A stretch of 64,000 bases of DNA. Origin: Candidatus Bathyarchaeota archaeon (GTDB lineage: Archaea > Thermoproteota > Bathyarchaeia > Bathyarchaeales > Bathycorpusculaceae). Position numbers and translations under genes: made by a program. This document shows, piece after piece, positions 4,984 through 39,621 of this stretch. The notes beneath the pieces are model-generated. The model made no database searches, was not told the DNA's origin, and was given only the letters and a program-made list of their open reading frames with translations. Position 1 is the stretch's first letter. Every line of letters begins with the position of its first letter. The stretch is taken from assembly GCA_963770935.1 (NCBI GenBank), contig CAVYRJ010000007.1, forward strand, positions 69,105-133,104, in the 5' to 3' direction.

Positions 4984-6534
4984 TTATTCCCACTCGATTG
5001 TTGCTGGTGGCTTATGAGTAATGTCATAGACAACGCGGGTAACCTGTGGAATCTCGTTTGTTATTCGGGTAGAAATCTTCTCCAAGATGTGGTAGGGAAT
5101 CTTGGCAAAACTTGCTGTCATGGCTTCACGGCTCTCCATTGCTCGCACAGCAACAACGTAGCCGTACGCGCGTGCATCACCCTTAACGCCAGTAGCTTTC
5201 GTGTCTGTAACCACCGCAAAGTACTGCCATAGGTTCTCCATTAGATCATTCTTCTCGATTTCTTCTCGGACAATTTTGTCGGCTTTTTTTGCAATAACGA
5301 CTTTTTCGTCGGTTAACGGTCCGATTATCCGTACAGCTAAGCCTGGTCCTGGGAAGGGTTGGCGGTTGACTATTTCTTTGGGTAAATCCAGCATTCTTGC
5401 GACTTTGCGGACTTCGTCTTTGTATAGGTCTCGGAGAGGCTCGAGGATTTTCTTAAACTTTATCTTATCCGGCAACCCGGCAACGTTGTGGTGCGATTTT
5501 ATTTTGTCAGAGTTTTTTCTGAATCCTGATTCAATCCTGTCTGGGTAGATGGTGCCTTGGATCAGGTATATGGCGTCTGACTCATTGGCGATTTCTTCAA
5601 AAACCCTGATGAACTCCTCGCCCATAATTTTTCGTTTAGTTTCGGGCTCGGTGATTCCTCTCAATTTAGCCATGAACCTTTCTTGGGCGTTGGCAACGAA
5701 AAATCGGATTGGAAATTTTTGGAAGGCTTCGCGAATTTGTTCTGTTTCGCCTTCCCGCATGAAACCATGGTCAACATAAACCGCAGTTAATTTTTCGCCG
5801 AGAGCTTTAGCTGCCAATGCCGTAGCGACGCTGGAGTCTATCCCTCCGCTTAACCCAATAATGGCTCTGGCGCCATGGGTTTCGGTTTGGAGTTCTTTTA
5901 TCATTTTTCCTATGAGGTCTTCCATCTGCCAGTTAGCTTTGCATTTGCAGACTTGGAAGATAAAGTTTTGAAGCATGCGCATGCCCTTTTCGGTATGTAT
6001 GACTTCAGGGTGCCATTGGAGTCCGTAGATTGGTTTGGTTTTGTGCCTAAACGCTGCAACGGGGCAGTTTTCTGTGTGAGCTAACGATTCGAATCCTGGA
6101 GGCGGAGAGAAAACTGTGTCGCCATGGCTCATCCAAACCTTCTCACTCTCACTTAACCCTTCCAATACGCCCACTGGCTTGTCTATTGAGACTTGGGCAA
6201 TGCCATATTCTTTGCAGGTTGCCGGTTCAACTTTGCTGCCGGTTAGTTGAGCTAAAAGCTGATGCCCATAGCACAAACCAAGAATTGGTAAGTCCACTTC
6301 TAAGATGCGTGGATGAAGTTTAGGAGCGTTTGGTTCATATACGCTTGAGGGTCCGCCTGAAAAAATCATGCCTTTGACGTTAAACTTTTCATTTAGAGCC
6401 GCTACTTCTTCGGGTGAGATGTCGTGGGGAACTATTTCTGAGTAGACACCATGTTCCCTGATTCTTCTGCCGATGAGGTGGCAGTATTGCCCGCCGAAGT
6501 CCAAGACGAGTATCGTGTCGTATTTTGCTTGCAT
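4984..6534 (-). CDS. guaA: GMP synthase (glutamine-hydrolysing), fused GATase and synthetase
   Basis: LDFGGQY, GLCYGHQ, QWHPEV, SGGIDSS, RQPFPGPGL, KPPATIEWE. Confidence 0.97.
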   Translation of the reverse strand: MQAKYDTILVLDFGGQYCHLIGRRIREHGVYSEIVPHDISPEEVAALNEKFNVKGMIFSGGPSSVYEPNAPKLHPRILEVDLPILGLCYGHQLLAQLTGSKVEPATCKEYGIAQVSIDKPVGVLEGLSESEKVWMSHGDTVFSPPPGFESLAHTENCPVAAFRHKTKPIYGLQWHPEVIHTEKGMRMLQNFIFQVCKCKANWQMEDLIGKMIKELQTETHGARAIIGLSGGIDSSVATALAAKALGEKLTAVYVDHGFMREGETEQIREAFQKFPIRFFVANAQERFMAKLRGITEPETKRKIMGEEFIRVFEEIANESDAIYLIQGTIYPDRIESGFRKNSDKIKSHHNVAGLPDKIKFKKILEPLRDLYKDEVRKVARMLDLPKEIVNRQPFPGPGLAVRIIGPLTDEKVVIAKKADKIVREEIEKNDLMENLWQYFAVVTDTKATGVKGDARAYGYVVAVRAMESREAMTASFAKIPYHILEKISTRITNEIPQVTRVVYDITHKPPATIEWE

Positions 6535-6730
6535 TATAGTGGCTCAGAACTTATTGGGGTTTAGGCTCTAATTTAACATTACTATCTATTTTCTGTTAAA
6601 AATCAGGCGTTACTGTACCCCTGGATTGTTGATTTATGATTCATTGTTCGGGGAAAAACTAAACTTTTATTAACTTAATCATCTGAATATCAGAAGGATG
6701 TTCCAAAAAAGCCAGTTCGGCTGAAAGAAC

Positions 6731-7192
6731 GTGCAGGGTAGGATGGTTATAGAATTGAATGAAACTGACGTAAAAATTCTAAAAGGTCTCCTAGAGGATG
6801 CAAGGTTCTCGAGCAGACAAATCGCCAAGAATGTTGGCGTTTCAGTCGGCACAGTCTTGTCTAGAATTAAAAAGATGGAAGAAGACGGTTTAATCAAAGG
6901 GTACTCAGTTATCTTGGACCATGAAAAACTCGGTTTTCAATTGACTGTAGTGACTGAAATCACAGTCTCCAAAGGCAGACTTGTTGAAACAGAAAACGAA
7001 ATAGCCAAAATCCCCAATGTCTGCGGAGTCTACGACGTTACAGGCTTAACCGATGCCATCATCGTTGCCAAATTCAAGAGTCGCGAAGACTTAGGCGGAT
7101 TCACCAAAAAACTACTCTCGTTGCCGTACATAGAACGCACAAACACTCACGTAGTGTTAACGACAGTGAAAGAAAACTTCCGGTTACTCTAA
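6731..7192 (+). CDS. Lrp/AsnC family transcriptional regulator
   Basis: N-terminal HTH (DARFSSRQIAKNVGVSVGTVLSRIKKMEEDGLI) and C-terminal RAM domain (VYDVTGLTDAI); start may be the ATG at 6743. Confidence 0.92.
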   Translation: MQGRMVIELNETDVKILKGLLEDARFSSRQIAKNVGVSVGTVLSRIKKMEEDGLIKGYSVILDHEKLGFQLTVVTEITVSKGRLVETENEIAKIPNVCGVYDVTGLTDAIIVAKFKSREDLGGFTKKLLSLPYIERTNTHVVLTTVKENFRLL

Positions 7193-7210
7193 AAGGAATA
7201 AGCCGAAAAC

Positions 7211-8272
7211 TTAGGGATTAGCTTTTTCAGAGTGATTTTCCATCTTGTACTTTAGTTCTGGCGCGGCGATGGTGATTTTTGTTCCTGCCGCCACAGGACT
7301 GGTTATCCATACGTTTCCACCTATAACTACGTTGTCGCCTACTATGGCTTCTGCTCCCAGAAGTGTTGCGCCTGAATAGATGACTACATTGTTGCCGATG
7401 GTTGGGTGGCGTTTTCTGCCTTTTATTATGTTTCCTTTCTCGTCTTTTGGAAAGCTTAGCGCGCCCAAGGTTACGCCTTGGTAGAGTTTAACGTTGTCTC
7501 CGATTTCCGCTGTTTCGCCGATGACTACACCTGTGCCGTGGTCTATGAAGAAGCTTTTGCCGATTTTTGCGCCTGGATGAATGTCTATTCCTGTTAGGGA
7601 GTGCATGTGCTCGCTCATTATCCTTGAAATCAGTGGCACACCATTCAAGTAGAGCTCATGCGCTATCCTGTACGTAGAAATTGCGAGAACACATGGATAA
7701 CTTAGGATAACTTCTTCTGAGCTTACTGCTGCTGGGTCACCGATATATGCTGCTTCAATATCTCCGCTAAGCATGGAGCGGATTTCGGGCAGTTTTTCAA
7801 GAAGTTCCTTAACTACGACATGGGCGCGTTTTTGGCACACGTCCTGTGGGCACTCGCTGATTTTTCTGCATATGTACTTGAGGCTTTTCTCAACCTCTCC
7901 CGTTAGTCGCGTATAAACCGAAGTGAGTTTTGTGCCGAGATAGTATTTTACGTTGGCTTTGGTGATTTCTGAATCGCCTAAGTAACCTGGGAAGAGAATC
8001 GTGAATAAATCTTCTAAGACTTCAATAACTACTTTTTTAGCTGGCAGGTCTTTGCCTTCAAGATGATCCATGCCGCCGAACTTTTGGTAGTTGACCATGA
8101 TTTCGTCGACTAGTTTGGGAAGGCCTTTTTCAACCCAATCCTGCTCCACTTTGTCATTGTTTCGCATAAGGGCATCTAGCATTCTGTCTGGGTTCCAGCA
8201 GTCTGCTTCGAATTTTTTTTCTTTGCATTCTTGGCAATCTTTTGGTCGGAACTGGTTGGGTTTTGTGGACAT
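7211..8272 (-). CDS. cysE: Serine O-acetyltransferase
   Basis: GDPAA, YPC..A...[37 protein letters not shown]; directly downstream of cysK. Confidence 0.93.
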
Positions 8273-8343
8273 TTTCTTTCCCTTTCTCTACTATGTGAAA
8301 AGGGGGAATATAAGAAAAGCGTCTTTTTGACGCAAATTATATG

Positions 8344-9273
8344 TTAAGATTTTAGGTCTTGGAACAAAACCGTGCTTAAGTAGCGTTCTCCTGTATCTGG
8401 TAGGATGACGACTATTAGTTTGCCTTTGTTCTCTTCTCTTTTTGCGATTTCTATGGCGGCGTATGCAGCTGCTCCAGAAGATATCCCGACAAGTAAGCCT
8501 TCCTGTTGAGCAAGTTGTCTTGCCGTTTCCAGTGCCTGGTCGTCAGTTACTTTAAAAATTTCATCAATCAAATCCATCTTTAACACGTCGGGTTTAAAAC
8601 CTGCACCTATACCTTGAATTTTGTGGGGTCCTTTCTTTCCACCGCTTAGCACTGGCGATCCTGCCGGTTCAACCGCCACGGTCTTTAACTCTGGCTTTTG
8701 CGGTTTAATGAACTGCGCGATGCCTGTTATGGTTCCGCCTGTCCCCACGCCCGCAACAAGGATGTCTACTTTGCCATCGGTGTCTTCCCAGATTTCAGGT
8801 CCAGTGGTCTCTTTGTGCACTTTGGGGTTGGCTAGGTTTTTGAATTGTTGAGGCATGAAACTGTTTGGGGTGACTGCGATGAGTTCTTCGGCTTTTTTAA
8901 TTGCTCCACCCATGCCGTCGGGTCCTGGTGTTAGCACAAGCTGTGCTCCGTAGGCTTTGAGGAGGTTGCGGCGTTCCACACTCATTGTTTCAGGCATGGT
9001 TAGGATAAGTTTGTAGCCTTTGACTGCTGCTACCATGGCTAAGCCGATGCCTGTGTTGCCTGAGGTAGGTTCGATCAGAGTTCCGCCGGCCTTTAGGCCT
9101 AGTTTTTCTGCCTCGGCTATCATGCTTTGACATATGCGGTCTTTGACGCTGCCGCCCGGGTTTCTGGCTTCTATTTTGGCGAGTACAGTGGCGTTGGCTC
9201 CTTTAGTTAGTTTGTTTATTTGGACAAGGGGTGTTTTTCCGATTGTTTCAAGGACGTTTTGGTTGATTTTCAT
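8344..9273 (-). CDS. cysK: Cysteine synthase A (PLP-dependent)
   Basis: [16 protein letters not shown] (PLP lysine), [31 protein letters not shown]; ATG at 9273 preferred over TTG at 9282. Confidence 0.96.
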
Positions 9274-9290
9274 TTTTAACACCTAATTAT

Positions 9291-9305
9291 TATAACAGTG
9301 TTATA
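9291..9305. promoter_or_regulatory. Palindrome TATAACA-G-TGTTATA, candidate operator of cysK-cysE
   Basis: Perfect 7-bp inverted repeat between the minus-strand TATA-like box (TTTATAAC, about 9315-9322) and the cysK start. Confidence 0.55.
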
Positions 9306-9328
9306 GAGAGCGTTGTTATAAACTTTAT

Positions 9329-9363
9329 CACTCATTAACACTCGTAAAACACTATAACACACT
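9329..9363. repeat. Helically phased CACT motifs upstream of the cysK promoter
   Basis: CACT at 9329, 9339, 9350 and 9360 (spacing 10, 11, 10). Confidence 0.45.
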
Positions 9364-9439
9364 AAACCTAAAACACTTACGCCAAAACACAAAGTAAAGC
9401 CTTTAAATGAGCCCTGTTCCTATATTTCCGCAACACAAC

Positions 9440-9527
9440 GCGGAGGTCGCCCAGCATGGCCAAAGGCGTAGGACTGAGGCTCCTATCCCGCAGGGGTTCG
9501 TGGGTTCAAATCCCACCCTCCGCACCA
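9440..9527 (+). tRNA. tRNA-Leu(GAG), CCA encoded
   Basis: Acceptor stem GCGGAGG/CCTCCGC, anticodon arm TAGGA-CTGAGGC-TCCTA, long variable arm, T arm GTGGG-TTCAAAT-CCCAC, ending ACCA. Confidence 0.97.
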
Positions 9528-9595
9528 AAATTCAAGTTTTCCGAATACACAAAAGTAAAATAACTGTTTATAGCAATTGACAATCGGCGACTCGT

Positions 9596-9968
9596 ATGCC
9601 TATTTCAGTTAGGTGCCAATTTACTCAACGTTTTACAGTTTCTGCCCAAGAAGCATTCGACTGGTGTACAAACTCCGTGGAATTGCAGGGAGAATTGAGA
9701 AGCAAAAGTTAGTTCACATCTACCCGGACCACTACAAATGGACATCAACGCATTTAACGGGTCCAATTAAGCCTCCCAATTCCTTTATCAGATAACACCA
9801 CAGGGCAAAGATGCTACAGTTTTAACCTTTGAAGCGCTTCACATAAATTACGATGGAAAAGCTGATGCTAAACTATTTGCTGAGCGATTATGCAAAGAAG
9901 ATGCTCATGCATGGAAACTTTTGGCAGTCGCGATGGTTGAAGACAAGAACAGACGTCAGAAGTCTTAG
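9596..9968 (+). pseudogene. Fragmented gene, possibly SRPBCC/helix-grip fold
   Basis: Three protein-like fragments in successive frames: MPISVRCQFTQRFTVSAQEAFDWCT, GRIEKQKLVHIYPDHYKWTSTHLTGP and SQFLYQITPQGKDATVLTFEALHI...EDAHAWKLLAVAM; fold assignment is inference. Confidence 0.55.
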
Positions 9969-10172
9969 ACCTTTGATTTCCACAAAATAGTTCTTTGTCC
10001 AAGAACTCTTTTTTAAATCATTTGCCTTCATATAAAACGGTTGGATTCTCCGGGCATGATTGATATTTTTGCGGTCAATTGGTTTTTCCATCAATATAAC
10101 GATTTTCTTAAGTAACGCATAAAAGCCAATGATACACAGTGATAATTTAACACCAAGAAAGGTTTGGTAACA

Positions 10173-10787
10173 ATGTCTGCTAAAACTCAACAGAGAAAAT
10201 TCGTTTCAGTTGACCCAGGCAAATGCATTGGTTGCGGAATCTGCGAGTACGCTTGCACCGTGGAAAAGGGTGAAGGCATCTGGAATCCTCTTAGGTCCAG
10301 AATCAGGGTTGTCCGCATGGCACCTATCTTCAATTTTGCTTTAACTTGTCGAGGGTGCCAAGATGCAAGATGTGTAAAAGCGTGTCCCGAACGAGCTCTC
10401 TCACAATCAGAAAGTACAGGATTACTACTTATTGATCAGGATAAATGCAAGGGCTGCGATTGGTGTGTTCAAGCCTGTGAACATGGAGGAATCACCATTC
10501 ATTCTGAAACAGGAAAAGCTATCGCATGCAACCTCTGTGAAGGCGAACCAAAATGCGTCGAATCCTGTCCAGAGGAAGCCTTAGAAATTGTTGAGTCAGA
10601 CGAAGCAGCCGAAAAACGTTTCAATGACGCATTCACAAACCTGGCAGCGCAAACAGAAAAATTAACTGCAGCCGTCAAGAGCAAAGATTGGAAGCCGCTG
10701 TTAGCTACTGCCGAAAAACGTTCTGAGAAAATCACAGAGAAACTGCAAGCCTTAAACAAGAAGGAAAAAGCTAAAAAACAAAAATAA
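10173..10787 (+). CDS. 4Fe-4S dicluster (polyferredoxin-like, DmsB/HydN-type) protein
   Basis: CIGCGICEYAC, CRGCQDARCVKACP, CKGCDWCVQAC, CNLCEGEPKCVESCP; helical C-terminal tail. Confidence 0.9.
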   Translation: MSAKTQQRKFVSVDPGKCIGCGICEYACTVEKGEGIWNPLRSRIRVVRMAPIFNFALTCRGCQDARCVKACPERALSQSESTGLLLIDQDKCKGCDWCVQACEHGGITIHSETGKAIACNLCEGEPKCVESCPEEALEIVESDEAAEKRFNDAFTNLAAQTEKLTAAVKSKDWKPLLATAEKRSEKITEKLQALNKKEKAKKQK

Positions 10788-10796
10788 CTTTTTTCC

Positions 10797-11660
10797 TTAC
10801 AACAAGTTTCCTTCGTAACCACGCAGAAGACTGTCGATGTCTAATCCGACTTTCTCGCCAACGTAACCGCCTTCCAGAACAAAGAAAGCTGGTTTTTTTA
10901 ATTGTGCTACTTTTTTGCCGATCTCAAAATAGTCCTGCTCAACTAAGCCTAAAGTAGCTAAATCACCTTGATGTGTGTCAAAGCCTGCGGAAACTGCTAC
11001 GGCCTCAAACTTGGCTAAATCAACCATACTTAATGCTTTGTCGAGAGTTTCCAAATATCTTTTTCCGCCAAGATCCCCTGGTAAGGCGAAGTTTATGCAG
11101 TTGCCCTCTGTGAAGTTGCCTGTTCCAGGGTAATTGGGTGACTGGTGAAGGGAAACATAAGTTACTTTTGGGTCGCCTTGAAAAATTTCTTGCGTACCGT
11201 TTCCATGGTGTCCATCGATGTCTAGGATCAAGGTGTGTTTCCCTGATTCTTTGACTGCTATGGCGATGTTATTTAGGTAGCAGAATCCACGAGTGTAAGC
11301 TCCCAGTGCAGCACCGTTCCTTCCAACGTGGTGTCCAGGTGGACGCATAAGCGAAAAACCATTAATCTTGCTCGCTAAGAGTGCACTGCCAGCCGAGAGT
11401 CTAGCGAACTCATAGATGTTGTTGTATGCAGGTGTATCTGAATCTTCAACTAACCCTTTTTTTACGTTAAAAAGGTAATCAGCATCATGAATTCCTAGCA
11501 GTTCCCAATCGTCTGCTGGCGAGGGCTCCACAAACTCCCGACCCTTGGATTCCAAAATGTCATGCGCTCCTTTTACTCTCTGAGGTCCTTCAATGTGCCA
11601 TGTGCCATAGCCTAAGCATTTTTCTGAATAGACTATTTTTGTTTTCATCGCGGGTTGCAT
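10797..11660 (-). CDS. Histone deacetylase family amidohydrolase (Zn-dependent)
   Basis: RPPGHH, GFCYLNN, ILDIDGHHGNGTQ, SAGFD, LEGGY. Confidence 0.93.
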   Translation of the reverse strand: MQPAMKTKIVYSEKCLGYGTWHIEGPQRVKGAHDILESKGREFVEPSPADDWELLGIHDADYLFNVKKGLVEDSDTPAYNNIYEFARLSAGSALLASKINGFSLMRPPGHHVGRNGAALGAYTRGFCYLNNIAIAVKESGKHTLILDIDGHHGNGTQEIFQGDPKVTYVSLHQSPNYPGTGNFTEGNCINFALPGDLGGKRYLETLDKALSMVDLAKFEAVAVSAGFDTHQGDLATLGLVEQDYFEIGKKVAQLKKPAFFVLEGGYVGEKVGLDIDSLLRGYEGNLL

Positions 11661-11745
11661 CCATTAGACACATAAGTACGCTTTCACATTTTAAAAACAT
11701 AACTAGCCAAAATTAACATTACCGAAGTAATCGGAGACAAAGTTC

Positions 11746-13695
11746 ATGGTCGCTCAGAATCCATTTGACAACTTTCGCCAAGAATGCCAAACTACATTAG
11801 CAAACGCATTAAACAAGACTCTGCCTGAAATCAAACAAGCCACAATAATTCTAAACAAAACACCAAACATCGAATATGGACAATTAGCTTCATCTCTGTG
11901 CTTTGAGATGGCAAAAAAACTTGGACAGAAACCAATCGTTTTAGCCAAGCAACTTGTCGACGCCATGGACAAATATAGTTTCTGTCTCATTGAGAAGGTT
12001 GCGCCTGCAGGTGCAGGATACATAAACTTCTATGCTAACTTCGCCAAATTCTCATCTTTAACCTTGAAGTCAGTTAAAGCATTAGGGTTTGAATACGGCT
12101 TTGTAAAAACTGATAAGCCTCAAAAAATAATCGTTGAACATACCAGCGTTAATCCGCTGCATCCCATCCATATTGGTCAAGCCAGAAATCCAATGCTTGG
12201 GGATGCACTGGCGAGGATTCTCCAGTACAGAGGGCATGAAGTTTCACGGCACTATTACATTGATGATGTTGGTCGACAATCATCTGTGGTTGCATATGGG
12301 TATGCTAAACTTGGTAGACCAAAACCTACTGAGAAAGCAGACCTTTTCGTAGGTAAAATATACACAGTTACTAGTTGCCTAGTGGAGATAAATCGCCTAA
12401 AGAAAGCACGCGAGCATGCCAATGCCGTTCATTCAGCTGATGATTTAGTTAAGGCAAACAAAGAAATCGATGAGTGGATGTCGATTGCGGTTGAGCTTAA
12501 AGAAAAGTTTCCTGTGCTTTTCGAGGCGTTAACCGCAGAAATCGGTTTAGATGAGAACCCGGAAGAAGAAATCAACCGGTTGAACCGCGCTTACGAAGAT
12601 GGTGAACCAAACGCAAAACAGCTCATCCGGGAAGTGAGCGATTTGTGCCTTGAAGGCTTTAGGGAAACCATGAAGCGTGTCGGAGTCACTTATGATTCGT
12701 GGGATTGGGAGAGCGATTTCGTTTGGAGCACGCAAGTTAATGATGTTTTGGCAAAGCTGAAGACTTCAATGTTTGTTCATAGCGAAAAGGGCGTGTTGGA
12801 GTTTGACGCTGAAAAGGTTGTACAGGTCTTTGGTTTAAAGGCGAAGTTGGATTTAAGCCCAAACAACGAGGTTCCTCCACTTACGCTTGGACGCGCTGAC
12901 GGCACCACACTCTATACAACCCGAGACATAGCCTATACCCTCTGGAAGTTTAAGCAAGCCCAAAAAGTCATCAACGTAATCGGCATGGAGCAGTCGCTGG
13001 CACAGTTGCAGCTGAAAATTGCGCTTTACGCCATGGGTTATATTGAGTATGCTGAGAACTTGGTGCATTTCGCCTACAACTTGGTTACGTTGCCAGGTTA
13101 CAAGATGAGCAGCAGAAGAGGACACTACATCACGTTTGACGACGTTTTGACCGAAGCGGTTCAACGTGCTTATGAAGAGGTTTCGAAGCGTTCACCGATG
13201 CTCTCTGAGGAGGAGAAACGCACTATCGCCGACTTCGTAGGTTTAGGTGCTGTGCGGTATGCACTCGTCGACGTGGATTCTTCTAAGCCAGTGGTGTTCA
13301 CTTGGGAACGTGTGCTGAACTTCGAAACCAACAGTGCACCCTATGTTCAATATACTCATGCAAGAGCCTGCAGCATCCTTCGCAAAGCTGCGCGTGACCC
13401 CGAAAAACCAATGTTTGAACTGCTAACTGAAAAGCTTGAACACGAACTCATCTTAGCTTTAGCTGGGTTCCCTGACATGTTCATCGAAGCCACAGAATAC
13501 CATAAACCCAACATGATTGCCGACTATACAAACGTACTTGCGGATAAATTCAACACATTCTACAACGCTTATCCCGTGATTAAGGCGGATTCACGAGAGC
13601 TTAGCGATGCTAGAATTGCCTTGACACAAGCAATAAAAACCGTGATGCATAACGCACTTAACTTGATTGGTGTGGTTGCCCCAGAAAAAATGTAG
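11746..13695 (+). CDS. argS: Arginyl-tRNA synthetase
   Basis: VEHTSVNP..PIHIGQARN, DDVGRQ, RADGTTLYTTRDIAY, KMSSRRG, PYVQYTHAR, C-terminal APEKM. Confidence 0.96.
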   Translation: MVAQNPFDNFRQECQTTLANALNKTLPEIKQATIILNKTPNIEYGQLASSLCFEMAKKLGQKPIVLAKQLVDAMDKYSFCLIEKVAPAGAGYINFYANFAKFSSLTLKSVKALGFEYGFVKTDKPQKIIVEHTSVNPLHPIHIGQARNPMLGDALARILQYRGHEVSRHYYIDDVGRQSSVVAYGYAKLGRPKPTEKADLFVGKIYTVTSCLVEINRLKKAREHANAVHSADDLVKANKEIDEWMSIAVELKEKFPVLFEALTAEIGLDENPEEEINRLNRAYEDGEPNAKQLIREVSDLCLEGFRETMKRVGVTYDSWDWESDFVWSTQVNDVLAKLKTSMFVHSEKGVLEFDAEKVVQVFGLKAKLDLSPNNEVPPLTLGRADGTTLYTTRDIAYTLWKFKQAQKVINVIGMEQSLAQLQLKIALYAMGYIEYAENLVHFAYNLVTLPGYKMSSRRGHYITFDDVLTEAVQRAYEEVSKRSPMLSEEEKRTIADFVGLGAVRYALVDVDSSKPVVFTWERVLNFETNSAPYVQYTHARACSILRKAARDPEKPMFELLTEKLEHELILALAGFPDMFIEATEYHKPNMIADYTNVLADKFNTFYNAYPVIKADSRELSDARIALTQAIKTVMHNALNLIGVVAPEKM

Positions 13696-36821: not shown

Positions 36822-38255
36822 ATGACACAAATGGCAGAAAAGAAAAAAGGCGGATTAAAAGAACTAAGCCCCATACTTATTTACAAGTCCTTGCCAAAAA
36901 CTAACTGCAAAGAATGCGGCGTCGACAATTGCATGGCATTCGCCACAAAGATTGTCAACCGCGAAGTAGAACTTGACAGCTGCAAACCACTCCTCAAACC
37001 AGAAAACGCGAAATCCTACGCTATACTAAAAGATCTCCTAAAACCAGCAGTTAAAGAAATCACTGTCGGCGTCGGCGATAAAGCCAAGAAAATCGGCGGC
37101 AAACTCGTCATGTACCGCCACGAATTCACATACAAGAACCCAACAGCCATCGCAATCGACGTAACCGACGAAATGTCTGATGCTGAAATCGTCTCACGCG
37201 TACAGAAAACAGATAACTTTAATTTCGAATACATTGGCAACCAACTAAAGCTTGACATGATCGCGGTCAGATGCACTTCTGAAGATGCCGACAAATTCAA
37301 GGCAACAGTTAAGAAAGTTTCAGAAACTACCAAATTACCAATGATTTTGTGCACCCTTAACCCAGCAATCGCTGAAGCAGGCCTAATGGCAGCACCAAAA
37401 GCGCGCCCACTTCTTTACGCGGCAACCGCAAGCAACTGGAAAGACATGGCAGAACTCGCACTAATGTACAACTGCCCTATAGTCGCGTCCGCACCAAACG
37501 ACCTGAATACTCTGGTTTCACTCGCAAAAACCCTGATGGCTTACGGCGTAACCGACATAGTCTTAGACCCAGGCACATTCCCAGCTGACGGATTACCTGA
37601 CACAATAAACAACTTTACGATGCTGCGCAGAGCAGCAACCAAAGGCGGCGAAGAACTCGCAGGTTTACCCTTACTCGGTGTACCAATGGTCGCTTGGGTA
37701 GACAAAGGTGACACCGCAGATGACCTGATCAAATGGCGAGAAGCATACATCGCCTCAATGCTGGTTGTCCGCTACGCAGACGTACTCATAATCCACGGCA
37801 ACGACGGATGGTCACTACTACCAACCGCAGTGCTACGTCAAAACATCTACACTGACCCACGCAAACCAGTCGCAGTCGCAGCAGGCCTGAAAGTCTACGG
37901 CACACCCGACGAGAACTCACCAGTACTCTTTACCTCAAACTTTGCATTAACTTTCTACACCGTCGCCTCAGACATCGAAAGCAACAAACTCAACGCTTAC
38001 CTAATCGTGGTTGACACAGAAGGCTCAGCAATCGACAGCGGAGTCGCAGGACGCAAACTCACAGCCGAGCGAGTTGCCGACGCAATCAAAGCATCAGGAA
38101 TAGAGAGCAAAGTCAAGCACAGAAAAATTATCAGCCCAGGCAAAGCCTCACGCATCAGCGGCGAAATCGAAGAACTCAGTGGCTGGAAAGTCCAAGTTGG
38201 ACCAAGAGATAGCAGTGAGATACCTAAGTATCTTATTGAGAAATGGCAACCATAA
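36822..38255 (+). CDS. cdhE: Corrinoid Fe-S protein large (gamma) subunit
   Basis: LPKTNCKECG..NCMAFA...C, IYTDPRKP, TSNFALTFYTV, VGPRDS. Confidence 0.96.
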   Translation: MTQMAEKKKGGLKELSPILIYKSLPKTNCKECGVDNCMAFATKIVNREVELDSCKPLLKPENAKSYAILKDLLKPAVKEITVGVGDKAKKIGGKLVMYRHEFTYKNPTAIAIDVTDEMSDAEIVSRVQKTDNFNFEYIGNQLKLDMIAVRCTSEDADKFKATVKKVSETTKLPMILCTLNPAIAEAGLMAAPKARPLLYAATASNWKDMAELALMYNCPIVASAPNDLNTLVSLAKTLMAYGVTDIVLDPGTFPADGLPDTINNFTMLRRAATKGGEELAGLPLLGVPMVAWVDKGDTADDLIKWREAYIASMLVVRYADVLIIHGNDGWSLLPTAVLRQNIYTDPRKPVAVAAGLKVYGTPDENSPVLFTSNFALTFYTVASDIESNKLNAYLIVVDTEGSAIDSGVAGRKLTAERVADAIKASGIESKVKHRKIISPGKASRISGEIEELSGWKVQVGPRDSSEIPKYLIEKWQP

Positions 38256-38259
38256 GCCA
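38160..38259 (+). repeat. Direct repeat copy 1 (3' end of cdhE)
   Basis: Colinear with 39002-39101; 84 of 100 positions identical by hand count. Confidence 0.9.
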
Positions 38260-38371
38260 TTTTTTCCTTTTTGTTTTTAGCTCCATTATTTTATTAGCTT
38301 CTTTAGAATTCAAGATACCGCCTTCATAAGAGATTTAAGTGCAGAATGAGTCTTAATAGCAATGCTATCTG

Positions 38372-38608
38372 GTGGTTTACATGGAAGAGTTACTTGATAG
38401 GATAACAGTTGATCCTGATGTTCTTGTCGGAAAACCTGTTATTAGAGGAACCCGTGTCCCAGTCTACCTCATCGTTGAGCTTGTAGCTAACGGAATGACA
38501 TCTGAAGAAATACTAAAAGAATACCCGCGGCTAAAAGAGGAAGACATCAAAGCAGCACTAATTTACGCTTCTAAACTCGTAGAAAGCGAAGTTACAGTTG
38601 TACTCTGA
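38372..38608 (+). CDS. DUF433 antitoxin-like protein
   Basis: ITVDPDVLVGKPVIRGTRVPV...YP.L..EDIKAAL.YA. Confidence 0.92.
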   Translation: MVYMEELLDRITVDPDVLVGKPVIRGTRVPVYLIVELVANGMTSEEILKEYPRLKEEDIKAALIYASKLVESEVTVVL

Positions 38609-38625
38609 GAAGAGACAAATGTAAA

Positions 38626-38985
38626 TTGACGCAAACAATAATAGTCGATGAAAATATTCCTGGTAGTGTAACTAAATATCTGAATGCGAGGGGTTTTAAG
38701 ACTCTCAGTATTTGTGATGATTTTCTGAAAAGCGCTAAAGACACAATCATAGCAAATTATGCGGCTGAAAAAGGAATGCAAGTGTTAACTTTAGATTCTG
38801 ACTTTTCCCAGCTATATCATAACCTCTTCAGAGGCAGAATCACCGTTTTATTGGTAAAAGCAAACCCTGCGACCGCCGAAAACATAATCAGAATTCTGGA
38901 TGTAGCCTTAGAGAAAATAAGAAAGACTGAAACTCAAAATAAGCTTCTAATAATCACAAAAAAGAGGATCAGAATAATCTCTTAA
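38626..38985 (+). CDS. DUF5615 PIN-like toxin
   Basis: IVDENI, AKD..I...A, LTLDSDF; usual partner of DUF433. Confidence 0.88.
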   Translation: MTQTIIVDENIPGSVTKYLNARGFKTLSICDDFLKSAKDTIIANYAAEKGMQVLTLDSDFSQLYHNLFRGRITVLLVKANPATAENIIRILDVALEKIRKTETQNKLLIITKKRIRIIS

Positions 38986-39001
38986 TTCAATTTATTACTG
39001 G

Positions 39002-39101
39002 GGAGAAATTGAAGAACTCGGTGGCTGGAAAGTTTAAGTTGAACAATGCGACAGCAGCGAGATACCTAAATATCTCATAGAGAAAAGGCAACCATTAGCC
39101 A
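39002..39101 (+). repeat. Direct repeat copy 2 (degenerate cdhE 3' end)
   Basis: Translates GEIEELGGWKV*VEQCDSSEIPKYLIEKRQP versus cdhE GEIEELSGWKVQVGPRDSSEIPKYLIEKWQP. Confidence 0.9.
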
Positions 39102-39173: not shown

Positions 39174-39413
39174 TCAATATTTTCCCATGACTTTTCTAAC
39201 AGCGATTTCAATGTCTTCAGTTTTAATTGTTTTTCTTCCTGCATATGTAGCATAGTCCAATGCTTCTTTTGCAATCTTTAAGCCAATTTTCCCAAGAACT
39301 CTTCCAAGCTCGTGCGCTGCTGCTTCACTTACCCTGTCTGCTCCAGCTTTCTCACATAATCTATGCATTGGAGCTAAGGCTATTTCTAATTCGTTCATTT
39401 GAGCTTTCTTCAC
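39174..39413 (-). CDS. Archaeal histone (HMf-like fold)
   Basis: LAPMHRL..KAGADRVSE.A, A.YAGRKTIKTEDIEIA. Confidence 0.92.
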   Translation of the reverse strand: MKKAQMNELEIALAPMHRLCEKAGADRVSEAAAHELGRVLGKIGLKIAKEALDYATYAGRKTIKTEDIEIAVRKVMGKY

Positions 39414-39470
39414 AGTCTCTTTTAATTTTTAAGACAATATTAAGCTTTGTTATCTTTTCCGCCGTTCTGT

Positions 39471-39484
39471 AGCAAATTATAAAT
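39471..39484 (+). promoter_or_regulatory. BRE/TATA-like promoter for the small Lys-rich ORF
   Basis: AGCAAA followed by TTATAAAT, about 25-30 nt upstream of the SD-containing segment at 39510. Confidence 0.55.
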
Positions 39485-39523
39485 ACAAATTGCTGTCATA
39501 CATAAAATCCCGAGGTTATTTTG

Positions 39524-39580
39524 ATGGCGAAGAAACCAGCTAAAAAAGTAGTAAAGAAAGCCCCGGCAAAGAAAAAGTAA
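39524..39580 (+). CDS. 18-aa Lys/Ala/Pro-rich peptide MAKKPAKKVVKKAPAKKK (not in the ORF track)
   Basis: ATG 39524 to TAA 39580, SD GAGGT at 39512-39516, upstream TATA, downstream T-rich tract; 9 of 18 residues are Lys. Confidence 0.7.
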   Translation: MAKKPAKKVVKKAPAKKK

Positions 39581-39603
39581 AACCTCGGCGTAAGCACATT
39601 CAC

Positions 39604-39621
39604 TTCTCTTTTTTTCTTTTT
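39604..39621 (+). terminator. T-rich archaeal-type terminator after the small ORF
   Basis: TTCTCTTTTTTTTCTTTTT-type pyrimidine tract about 25 nt after the stop codon. Confidence 0.45.

Follow-up and report, generated by a model that had tools for sequence, protein, structure and literature searches.

A conserved lysine-rich micro-gene paired with an accessory histone gene in Bathyarchaeia, encoding a candidate DNA-binding polycation

The window analysed here is a stretch of 64,000 nucleotides from a Candidatus Bathyarchaeota archaeon (assembly GCA_963770935.1, contig CAVYRJ010000007.1), and it carries, head-to-head with an archaeal histone gene, a compact predicted transcription unit built around a micro-open reading frame (micro-ORF) of 18 codons, MAKKPAKKVVKKAPAKKK. 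Comparison of related sequences indicates that the micro-ORF is very probably a real coding gene under purifying selection at the protein level. The best overall explanation, to which we give an even chance, is that this micro-gene would supply a polycationic DNA-binding partner of the accessory histone encoded beside it. A functional coupling between peptide and accessory histone is somewhat favoured, and an action of the peptide on DNA or chromatin falls slightly short of an even chance.

The codons of the micro-ORF (39524-39580) are ATG GCG AAG AAA CCA GCT AAA AAA GTA GTA AAG AAA GCC CCG GCA AAG AAA AAG TAA. The translated product contains K 9, A 4, P 2, V 2 and M 1 among its 18 residues, confirming an initial annotation according to which half of the residues are Lys, and has a mass of 1.98 kDa and a net charge of ~+8.5 (~+6.5 in the variants with two Glu). 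Across the whole host assembly (G000; 1.98 Mb, 42.5% G+C, 18 contigs) it has the highest Lys content of all ATG-initiated ORFs of 12-40 aa, only four of which reach 40% Lys, and its combination of TATA box and Shine-Dalgarno (SD) sequence occurs a single time. Neither a second copy of the peptide nor a peptide beside the second histone was found in this genome, and a search there for eL41-like R/K-rich small ORFs gave nothing convincing. The initial annotation had described a complete mini transcription unit with a B recognition element (BRE) and TATA box, an SD sequence GAGGT, a start codon, a TAA stop and a T-rich terminator. All of these parts are present, in a layout that recurs in >130 distinct copies across genomes and metagenomes of Bathyarchaeia, and the coordinates needed correction only in the position of the start codon, which is ATG 39524 (Table 1).

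Table 1. Features of the micro-gene and its histone neighbour, in window coordinates; the micro-ORF, BRE-like element and TATA box of the peptide unit were read from the sequence
Feature	Position	Strand	Remarks
BRE-like AGCAAA	39471-39476	+	predicted promoter element of the micro-gene
TATA box TTATAAATA	39477-39485	+	predicted promoter element of the micro-gene
5' arm CCCGAGGTT	39509-39517	+	contains SD GAGGT (39512-39516); pairs with 39581-39588
Micro-ORF MAKKPAKKVVKKAPAKKK	39524-39580	+	18 aa; stop TAA 39578-39580
3' arm AACCTCGG	39581-39588	+	anti-SD mimic directly after the stop; pairs with the 5' arm
T7-C-T5 run	39609-39621	+	T7 39609-39615, T5 39617-39621; predicted archaeal oligo-T terminator
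Accessory archaeal histone gene, MNELEIALAPMHRL...	39174-39398	-	74 aa; PF00808, E=1e-09; start GTG 39413 in the ORF list
Predicted histone promoter	39436-39451	-	AACAAAG (BRE-like), then CTTAATATT (TATA, 39436-39444); putative function

Evidence for coding was obtained by BLAST searches with the intergenic DNA, in which no ORF definition was used, against 24 other genomes of the same genus. The unit was present in 11 of these, and the frame is open in 13/13 copies when the window's own copy and the two copies of one genome are counted. Start codons in these copies alternate between ATG and GTG, and the stop codon is always TAA. The four indels within the ORF are all multiples of three, whereas the flanks carry indels of any length, with one or two bases being common. 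The variable columns fall mainly on third codon positions: counted by codon position they number 0/4/8 in the 10 copies of equal length, 3/5/15 in 33 distinct genome-derived units (chi-square p = 0.004) and 2/4/13 in 58 distinct 57-nt alleles that include metagenomic ones (chi-square p = 0.004). Among the 58 alleles the codons for Ala2 are used almost evenly (GCG 16, GCA 13, GCC 16, GCT 13), and P5, K7, K8, K11, K12, A13 and P14, all left free by the search pattern, are 100% conserved with changes at the third position. Changes in the peptide are confined to residues 6, 9, 10 and 15 and are mostly to V, A or E, on a fixed scaffold M-A-K-K-P-x-K-K-x-x-K-K-A-P-x-K-K-K (x = V, A or E). In combination, the codon-position bias, the use of the Ala2 codons, the invariant residues with synonymous change and the in-frame indels argue for purifying selection on a protein. 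No orthologous locus with a frame-disrupting change was found, and the expectations set out initially, of conservation in relatives with an intact frame and of a bias towards synonymous change, were thus borne out, as was the description of a stand-alone PAKK-type K/A/P-rich peptide gene, the scaffold of which is kept in >130 copies.

The Lys pairs are almost always coded AAG-AAA, compared with a genome-wide use of AAA for 72% of Lys codons; the second codon of a pair is AAA in 57-58 of the 58 alleles, and the first toggles between AAG and AAA. The pairing may fit selection against long A-runs in a translated message, which would not fully explain the strict synonymous invariance.

The distribution of the unit was followed with exact degenerate DNA patterns, after an 18-column profile hidden Markov model (HMM) of the peptide missed known positives over 201 genomes. 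A degenerate pattern run over the GTDB species genomes matched many metagenome-assembled genomes (MAGs) labelled 'Candidatus Bathyarchaeota/Bathyarchaeia' from bog, palsa, fen, SPRUCE peat and Danish soil. The peptide pattern matches 54 of the 401 genomes of the order, compared with six matches for a reversed control pattern. In the window's own genus (g1) the strict pattern matches 30 of 89 genomes, and about two thirds of the species are without the peptide; a sister genus (g21) contributes ~20 matching genomes and a third genus (g31) two, in addition to one doubtful match outside the family. One pattern-negative genome (G277) revealed a variant, MTKKPVKKEEKKAPAKKK, when the search was anchored on its second histone. 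Across the units the peptide varies from 15 to 23 aa in length (e.g. VAKKAKKPAKKEEKKK and VAKKPAKKEVKKAPAKKAPVKKK) and the spacer residues vary freely. The units of the different genera share the promoter and a CCCGAGGTTAA.CTC-GTG context and are therefore regarded as homologous, with a product that evolves as a charge-patterned low-complexity peptide.

Four relatives of 20-21 aa were sought by exact look-up in a collection of 15 billion proteins and none was present, the 18-aa peptides themselves lying below the 20-aa minimum of that look-up. Pfam and NCBIfam searches with the peptide variants likewise returned no family at E<=10, short low-complexity queries of this kind having little power, and an Rfam scan of the region gave no family, its two sub-threshold hits (E 3.4 and 6.9) being taken as chance. 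Literature searches brought up neither a tail-like peptide with a gene of its own nor an archaeal Lys-rich peptide or small ORF beside histones. A viral origin was considered and rejected; two IMG/VR matches proved to be unrelated sequences, and the unit is absent from IMG/VR. A contig of 1549 nt binned as 'Thermodesulfovibrionales bacterium' (L032, JBAQLU010000216.1) carries the complete cassette of the Bathyarchaeia histone and peptide genes and is most likely archaeal and mis-binned.

The expression signals are conserved together with the reading frame. The promoter segment 39471-39485 is invariant or nearly so in the 13 aligned copies, and across 133 distinct units the spacings are fixed at 37-38 nt from the end of the TATA box to the start codon, 8 nt from GAGG to the start codon and 27-31 nt from the stop codon to the T-run. 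Specifically, TATAAATA or TTTAAATA occurs in 98 of the 133 units, at 37-38 nt before the start in 92 of the 98; GAGG stands 8 nt before the start in 102 of 118 metagenomic units; and the first run of at least five T lies 27-31 nt after the stop in 114 of the 133. Archaeal TATA boxes are centred near -26/-27, and the transcript is therefore predicted to start near 39507 and to measure ~110 nt. A scan for bacterial-type promoters and terminators was uninformative for an archaeon.

A further conserved element is a stem between the SD region and the 6-10 nt that follow the stop codon, found in both the minimum free energy (MFE) and the centroid folds. A stem of at least 6 bp forms in 118 of the 133 distinct units, whereas shuffling of the 3' segment leaves such a stem in 24 of 133. 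The stem has a nearly invariant core, CCGAGG:CCTCGG, the variants CTTCGG and TCTCGG still pair through G-U, and the helix is extended on different sides in different lineages (CCGAGGTT:AACCTCGG versus ATCCCGAGG:CCTCGGGAT). The fold of the whole transcript is no more stable than that of shuffled sequence (z = 0.49), and only the closing stem is meaningful. Given this conserved pairing, the mRNA appears to mask its own ribosome-binding site by means of an anti-SD mimic placed where a terminating ribosome would sit. The predicted transcript would comprise a 5' untranslated region (UTR) of ~17 nt, the 57-nt ORF and a 3' UTR of ~30-40 nt with an oligo-T end. As a closed mini-mRNA it would hide the ribosome-binding site; a ribosome at termination would occupy the 3' arm and so leave the site accessible for another round. 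The stem could gate or self-prime translation in this way, or it could stabilise the tiny mRNA or protect both RNA ends.

The neighbouring histone gene was placed head-to-head with the micro-gene in the initial annotation, with its start at GTG 39413. The divergent layout holds, and the start codon is most likely ATG 39398 instead, tblastn alignments in all relatives beginning at MNELEIA. With this start the two start codons are 125 nt apart; the histone TATA box lies 37 nt before the histone ATG, an arrangement conserved in relatives with the divergent 125-nt layout, and the two TATA boxes stand back-to-back, 32 bp apart, the one feature seen that bears on the putative co-regulation proposed initially. 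Many database entries for Bathyarchaeia named 'histone H3/H4' or 'DNA-binding protein' (P0001-P0108), 84-128 aa long, are over-extended gene calls, in which the additional N-termini (...NIALKRKRSYGEV-M..., ...KVKYSLKKRKK...) translate the TATA box and 5' UTR and are no histone tails.

In the genomes of the window's genus the unit lies beside a histone gene in nearly every locus. The layout is usually divergent at 125-129 nt, and divergent arrangements at ~320 or 410 nt and tandem arrangements behind the histone at 95-146 or 370 nt also occur. An independent metagenomic sample of 118 units gave a similar picture: a histone gene lies at most 700 nt upstream in 78 (65 divergent, 13 tandem), that is, in 78 of the 96 assessable units; eight have a ferritin-like gene downstream, 10 have neither and 22 could not be assessed. 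Divergent distances in this sample are ~125, 260, 320 or 420 nt, and tandem distances 90-160 nt. A comparison of 27 loci from different species shows unrelated flanking genes in nearly every case, and the pair therefore behaves as a cassette. One genome (G385) carries four peptide genes, each head-to-head with a different histone gene, and two others (G019 and G269) each carry two linked histones and one unlinked core histone. The window's own genome also has a second, 'core' histone, on contig C1 (159143-159361), unlinked and with no peptide nearby. At least two histones are encoded in 31 of 32 peptide-positive genomes versus six of 39 negative ones, the other 33 of the 39 having one or none. 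The association with the histone gene claimed initially has thus been maintained in evolution: the two genes behave as a cassette, occur together with an additional histone paralogue and have been duplicated jointly.

In a histone tree of 73 columns and weak resolution the unlinked core histones form a tight clade. Histones with the 125- or 410-nt linkage lie outside this clade and have longer branches, and those linked in tandem or at 320 nt nest among the core-like sequences. The position equivalent to HMfB-L46 is Tyr in 25/25 histones linked at 125 nt, compared with Phe in 14/17 unlinked core histones. At the dimer-dimer interface, HMfB-H49 is replaced by Tyr in 13/25 of the 125-nt-linked histones, including the window's (ATYAGRK), and is His in 16/17 core histones. 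At the DNA-contact positions R10, R19, K53 and T54 there is hardly any change (one K53T; a few R or K at 10 and 53). Judged from these alignments, the substitutions at L46 and H49 may point to an altered oligomerisation of the accessory paralogue. The cassette of the window sits directly beside an apparent insertion in a variable region: the 3' end of a cdhD-like gene (36822-38255) is present as a diverged duplicate (38987-39101 versus 38148-38260), which follows a DUF433/DUF5615 (PIN-like) toxin-antitoxin-type pair (38372-38985).

The reading that we prefer, with the peptide as a polycationic partner of the accessory histone, starts from this genomic setting, a cassette with a fast-evolving histone paralogue that is usually head-to-head with the micro-gene. 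The peptide, with a net charge of +6 to +9, would be disordered, being too short and too low in complexity to fold; removal of the initiator Met, suggested by the invariance of Ala2, would leave AKKPAKKVVKKAPAKKK. The peptide would bind DNA electrostatically, as a free-standing analogue of a histone tail or of the H1 C-terminal domain, and the expected consequences would be neutralisation of DNA charge and a change in the compaction produced by the tail-less accessory histone expressed from the adjacent gene. A more elaborate form of the proposal, which we put forward tentatively and consider rather unlikely as a whole, describes a portable two-gene chromatin module: an accessory histone variant, often with H49Y at the tetramerisation residue, and an 18-aa oligolysine 'histone tail in trans' would jointly change DNA wrapping or bridging, with synthesis of the peptide gated by the SD-masking mRNA.

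Several observations weigh against a role on chromatin in partnership with the histone. The histone link is confined to one genus and to one copy in a second genus. The units of g21 and g31 (type F; L173-L192, L039, L071, L120) always lie between a divergent gene for an energy-coupling factor (ECF) transporter S-component and a ferritin-like gene (326 aa, two PF00210 domains) on the same strand 160-320 nt downstream, and no histone was found within 2.4 kb of them; one g31 genome carries both this type and the histone-linked type (type H). Within the window's genus, both copies of one genome (G343) and the copy of another (G022) have no histone nearby. The co-occurrence of peptide and histone number (Fisher p = 7e-13) is uncorrected for shared ancestry. 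A Rosetta-stone search found no K/A/P-tailed histone fusion among the 120 closest database histones, the linked histone is weakly basic (pI 8.8) with no obvious acidic surface, and the variants with two Glu carry less charge. Finally, an 18-mer carrying a charge of +6 to +9 has only a moderate affinity for DNA at physiological salt, so that the peptide would have to be abundant, and the same polycation chemistry would equally bind RNA, ribosomes or polyphosphate.

The last point leads to the alternative that survives best, albeit as an unlikely one: a real polycation with a target other than chromatin, such as an RNA or ribosome coat, polyphosphate or another polyanion, for which adjacency to histone or ferritin genes would reflect shared high expression or hitch-hiking in variable regions. 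The existence of homologous units without a histone link in g21 and g31 fits this explanation, and three ribosomal proteins of the window's genome (uL24, uL18 and uL29) carry long K/A/P/E-rich C-terminal extensions, from which it follows that the chemistry is also used on the ribosome. AlgP, a KPAA-repeat protein, associates with polyphosphate granules (PMC9239181), and ribosomal proteins are also among the associates of a tail-only H1-like protein of Toxoplasma (PMC9769792). A core ribosomal component would, however, be expected in more than the roughly one third of the species of the genus that have the peptide, and a length of 15-23 aa with free spacers is unlike that of peptides filling a defined rRNA pocket. 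The pairing with the histone has moreover survived many rearrangements and duplications. The ribosomal extensions themselves are encoded on contig C2 (~6000-12500, minus strand), exceed 100 aa in uL24 and uL18 and reach ~40 aa in uL29 (e.g. ...KAPKEKAPKAKAVAKEKAPKAKAPKEKAPKPA..., ...AKKPASKKAAPATAKK...).

It is improbable that the unit is mainly regulatory, with the peptide incidental. Either a stem-gated, Lys-dense mini-ORF would sense Lys-tRNA or translation capacity, or a small RNA (sRNA) of ~110 nt would act, in each case to control the neighbouring gene (ferritin-like in type F, histone in type H). The conserved pairing of the SD with the post-stop segment implies translation control, nine of the 18 codons specify Lys, and in type F the conserved tandem ferritin-like gene, on the same strand 160-320 nt downstream and beyond a T-run, gives an attenuator-like layout. 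In type H, on the other hand, the downstream gene is not conserved and is unrelated between species, and the histone gene is on the opposite strand or upstream, so that control by read-through in cis is impossible there. Classic leader peptides show no conservation at non-regulatory residues, whereas A2, P5, A13 and P14 are invariant with synonymous change. For an sRNA, a curated Rfam family was not matched, the fold as a whole gains no stability over shuffled sequence (z = 0.49, as above), and conservation follows the codon positions. The weakest explanation, that the ORF is fortuitous, lying in conserved, A-rich non-coding DNA such as the histone promoter or UTR, and yields no peptide, is strongly disfavoured: A-rich sequence does read as Lys in one frame with few stops, and the entire unit including its non-coding parts is well conserved, but this does not account for the third-position bias, the four-fold Ala2 codons, the in-frame-only indels, the ATG/GTG interchange with invariant TAA and fixed SD spacing, the Lys-rich ORF that units of other genera keep despite diverged nucleotides, or the rarity of matches to the reversed control pattern.

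The peptide resembles H1-like Lys/Ala/Pro polycations in composition and presumed mechanism, with no membership in the H1, Hc1/Hc2 or histone-fold families. The likeness to H1 tails proposed initially stands for composition and fails for homology, since the peptide lacks a winged-helix domain and an S/TPKK motif and matches no HMM. The globular winged-helix domain of linker histones H1/H5 (PF00538) is absent from an 18-aa product, and test sequences of 20, 21 and 36 aa gave no Pfam match at E<=10; a K/A/P-rich basic tail of the H1 type is present by composition only; and the window peptide and its main variants have no Ser or Thr with which to form S/TPKK. The bacterial proteins Hc1 (PF07432) and Hc2 (PF07382) were not matched in Pfam or NCBIfam at E<=10, which excludes membership and not analogy. 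The histone fold (PF00808) is found in the neighbouring gene and could not be formed by 18 residues. A small basic ribosomal protein of the eL41, bS22, bL37 or bTHX type is not indicated either, given the presence in 30/89 genomes, the length of 15-23 aa and the lack of an NCBIfam match.

The closest analogues are the H1 C-terminal domain and the tail-only H1-like proteins of trypanosomatids and Toxoplasma gondii, which are likewise K/A/P-rich and polycationic, and which share with the peptide a disorder that is predicted in its case. H1 tail domains and proteins comprise tens to about 100 residues; the peptide, in contrast, has 15-23, is archaeal, is encoded by a separate micro-gene and shows no demonstrable sequence homology to them. 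The tail-only proteins, which have no globular domain, act on chromatin with core histones, as TgH1-like of Toxoplasma does in associating with chromatin and histones (PMC9769792), and the peptide gene has a histone-fold gene as its partner. Lys pairs spaced by A, P or V also characterise the KPAA repeats of Pseudomonas AlgP and PhaF and the PAKKA repeats of mycobacterial Hlp/HupB and Ku. The latter provide a precedent for DNA binding, and a repeated evolution of Lys/Ala/Pro repeat sequences has been argued (PMC3553676); AlgP KPAA-repeat peptides bind DNA in vitro (PMC9239181). These bacterial repeats are, however, appended to folded domains of much larger proteins, whereas here the repeat is the whole gene product, and pairing with a histone was seen in these searches only for the Bathyarchaeia units. 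A third parallel is given by tailed archaeal histones, N-terminal tails having been described in Heimdallarchaeota LC_3, Huberarchaea and Bathyarchaeota B23 (Henneman et al. 2018, PMC6136690). In these a Lys-containing extension is combined with a histone fold, as in the peptide-histone pairing, but it is fused in cis; the histones considered here are tail-less, and a gene of its own encodes the Lys-rich element. What sets the unit apart from the known polycations is its format as a micro-gene, its host among the archaea, its cassette with a histone and its self-masking mRNA.

Tiny stand-alone ORFs of the MAKKPAKK...KKK* type were also encountered in three bacterial groups, Cytophagales, Acidobacteriota and Omnitrophota, and no description of stand-alone bacterial polylysine micro-ORFs was found in the literature searched. 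None of them is linked to a histone, homology with the archaeal unit is not demonstrable and convergence is likely. In ~40 genomes of Cytophagales/Cyclobacteriaceae (Bacteroidota) a stand-alone ORF of 20-21 aa, MAKKPAKKAAKKAKKAAKKKK, with a stop two codons upstream, lies ~145 nt after murB and is followed by hairpins (L024-L142; e.g. L024 1411-1476, L062 3230-3295, L101 5205-5270). In most of these loci the next gene, 140-470 nt further on, encodes a protein of ~105 aa with a K/A/P-rich N-terminal tail and no Pfam match. In the Acidobacteriota and Omnitrophota MAGs the stand-alone ORFs encode 15-18 aa (e.g. MAKKPAKKAAKKPKKK and MAKKPAKKPVKKVAKKKK), and two of them follow the SD sequence ACGAGGTG (L050 6910-6960, L066 190-237, L099 4849-4902, L096 5391-5447). 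Five Methanomassiliicoccales genomes contain a 15-aa ORF, MAKKPEKKA(E/D)PKKKK, 9 nt after an SD sequence GGAGGTG (L038 3863-3910, L085 862-909, L126 1237-1284, L131 3889-3936, L140 3160-3207). Its site is conserved, flanked on one side by a 246-aa MKWRSH... protein and on the other by a membrane protein, no histone lies in the vicinity, and the ORF may represent a second archaeal family of polylysine micro-genes.

Archaeal histones of the HMf type are tail-less, and no linker-histone equivalent is known in archaea; the study of chromatin evolution has yet to settle how tails and linker histones arose. With a Lys/Ala/Pro peptide that is under selection, has a gene of its own and follows an accessory histone gene in inheritance, duplication and loss, it becomes testable whether tail-like charge neutralisation can be supplied in trans. 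If this proves true, the peptide would be the first chromatin peptide of a linker-histone or tail type known from archaea, and would stand, on the archaeal side, for a broad class of encoded oligolysine polycations that has gone unrecognised in prokaryotes. The uncultured host and the narrow taxonomic range of the histone link limit the interest of the system, which lies in archaeal chromatin and small-protein research. It offers a conserved class of micro-genes systematically missed by gene callers, and an mRNA design in which the Shine-Dalgarno sequence would be masked by the sequence directly after the stop codon.

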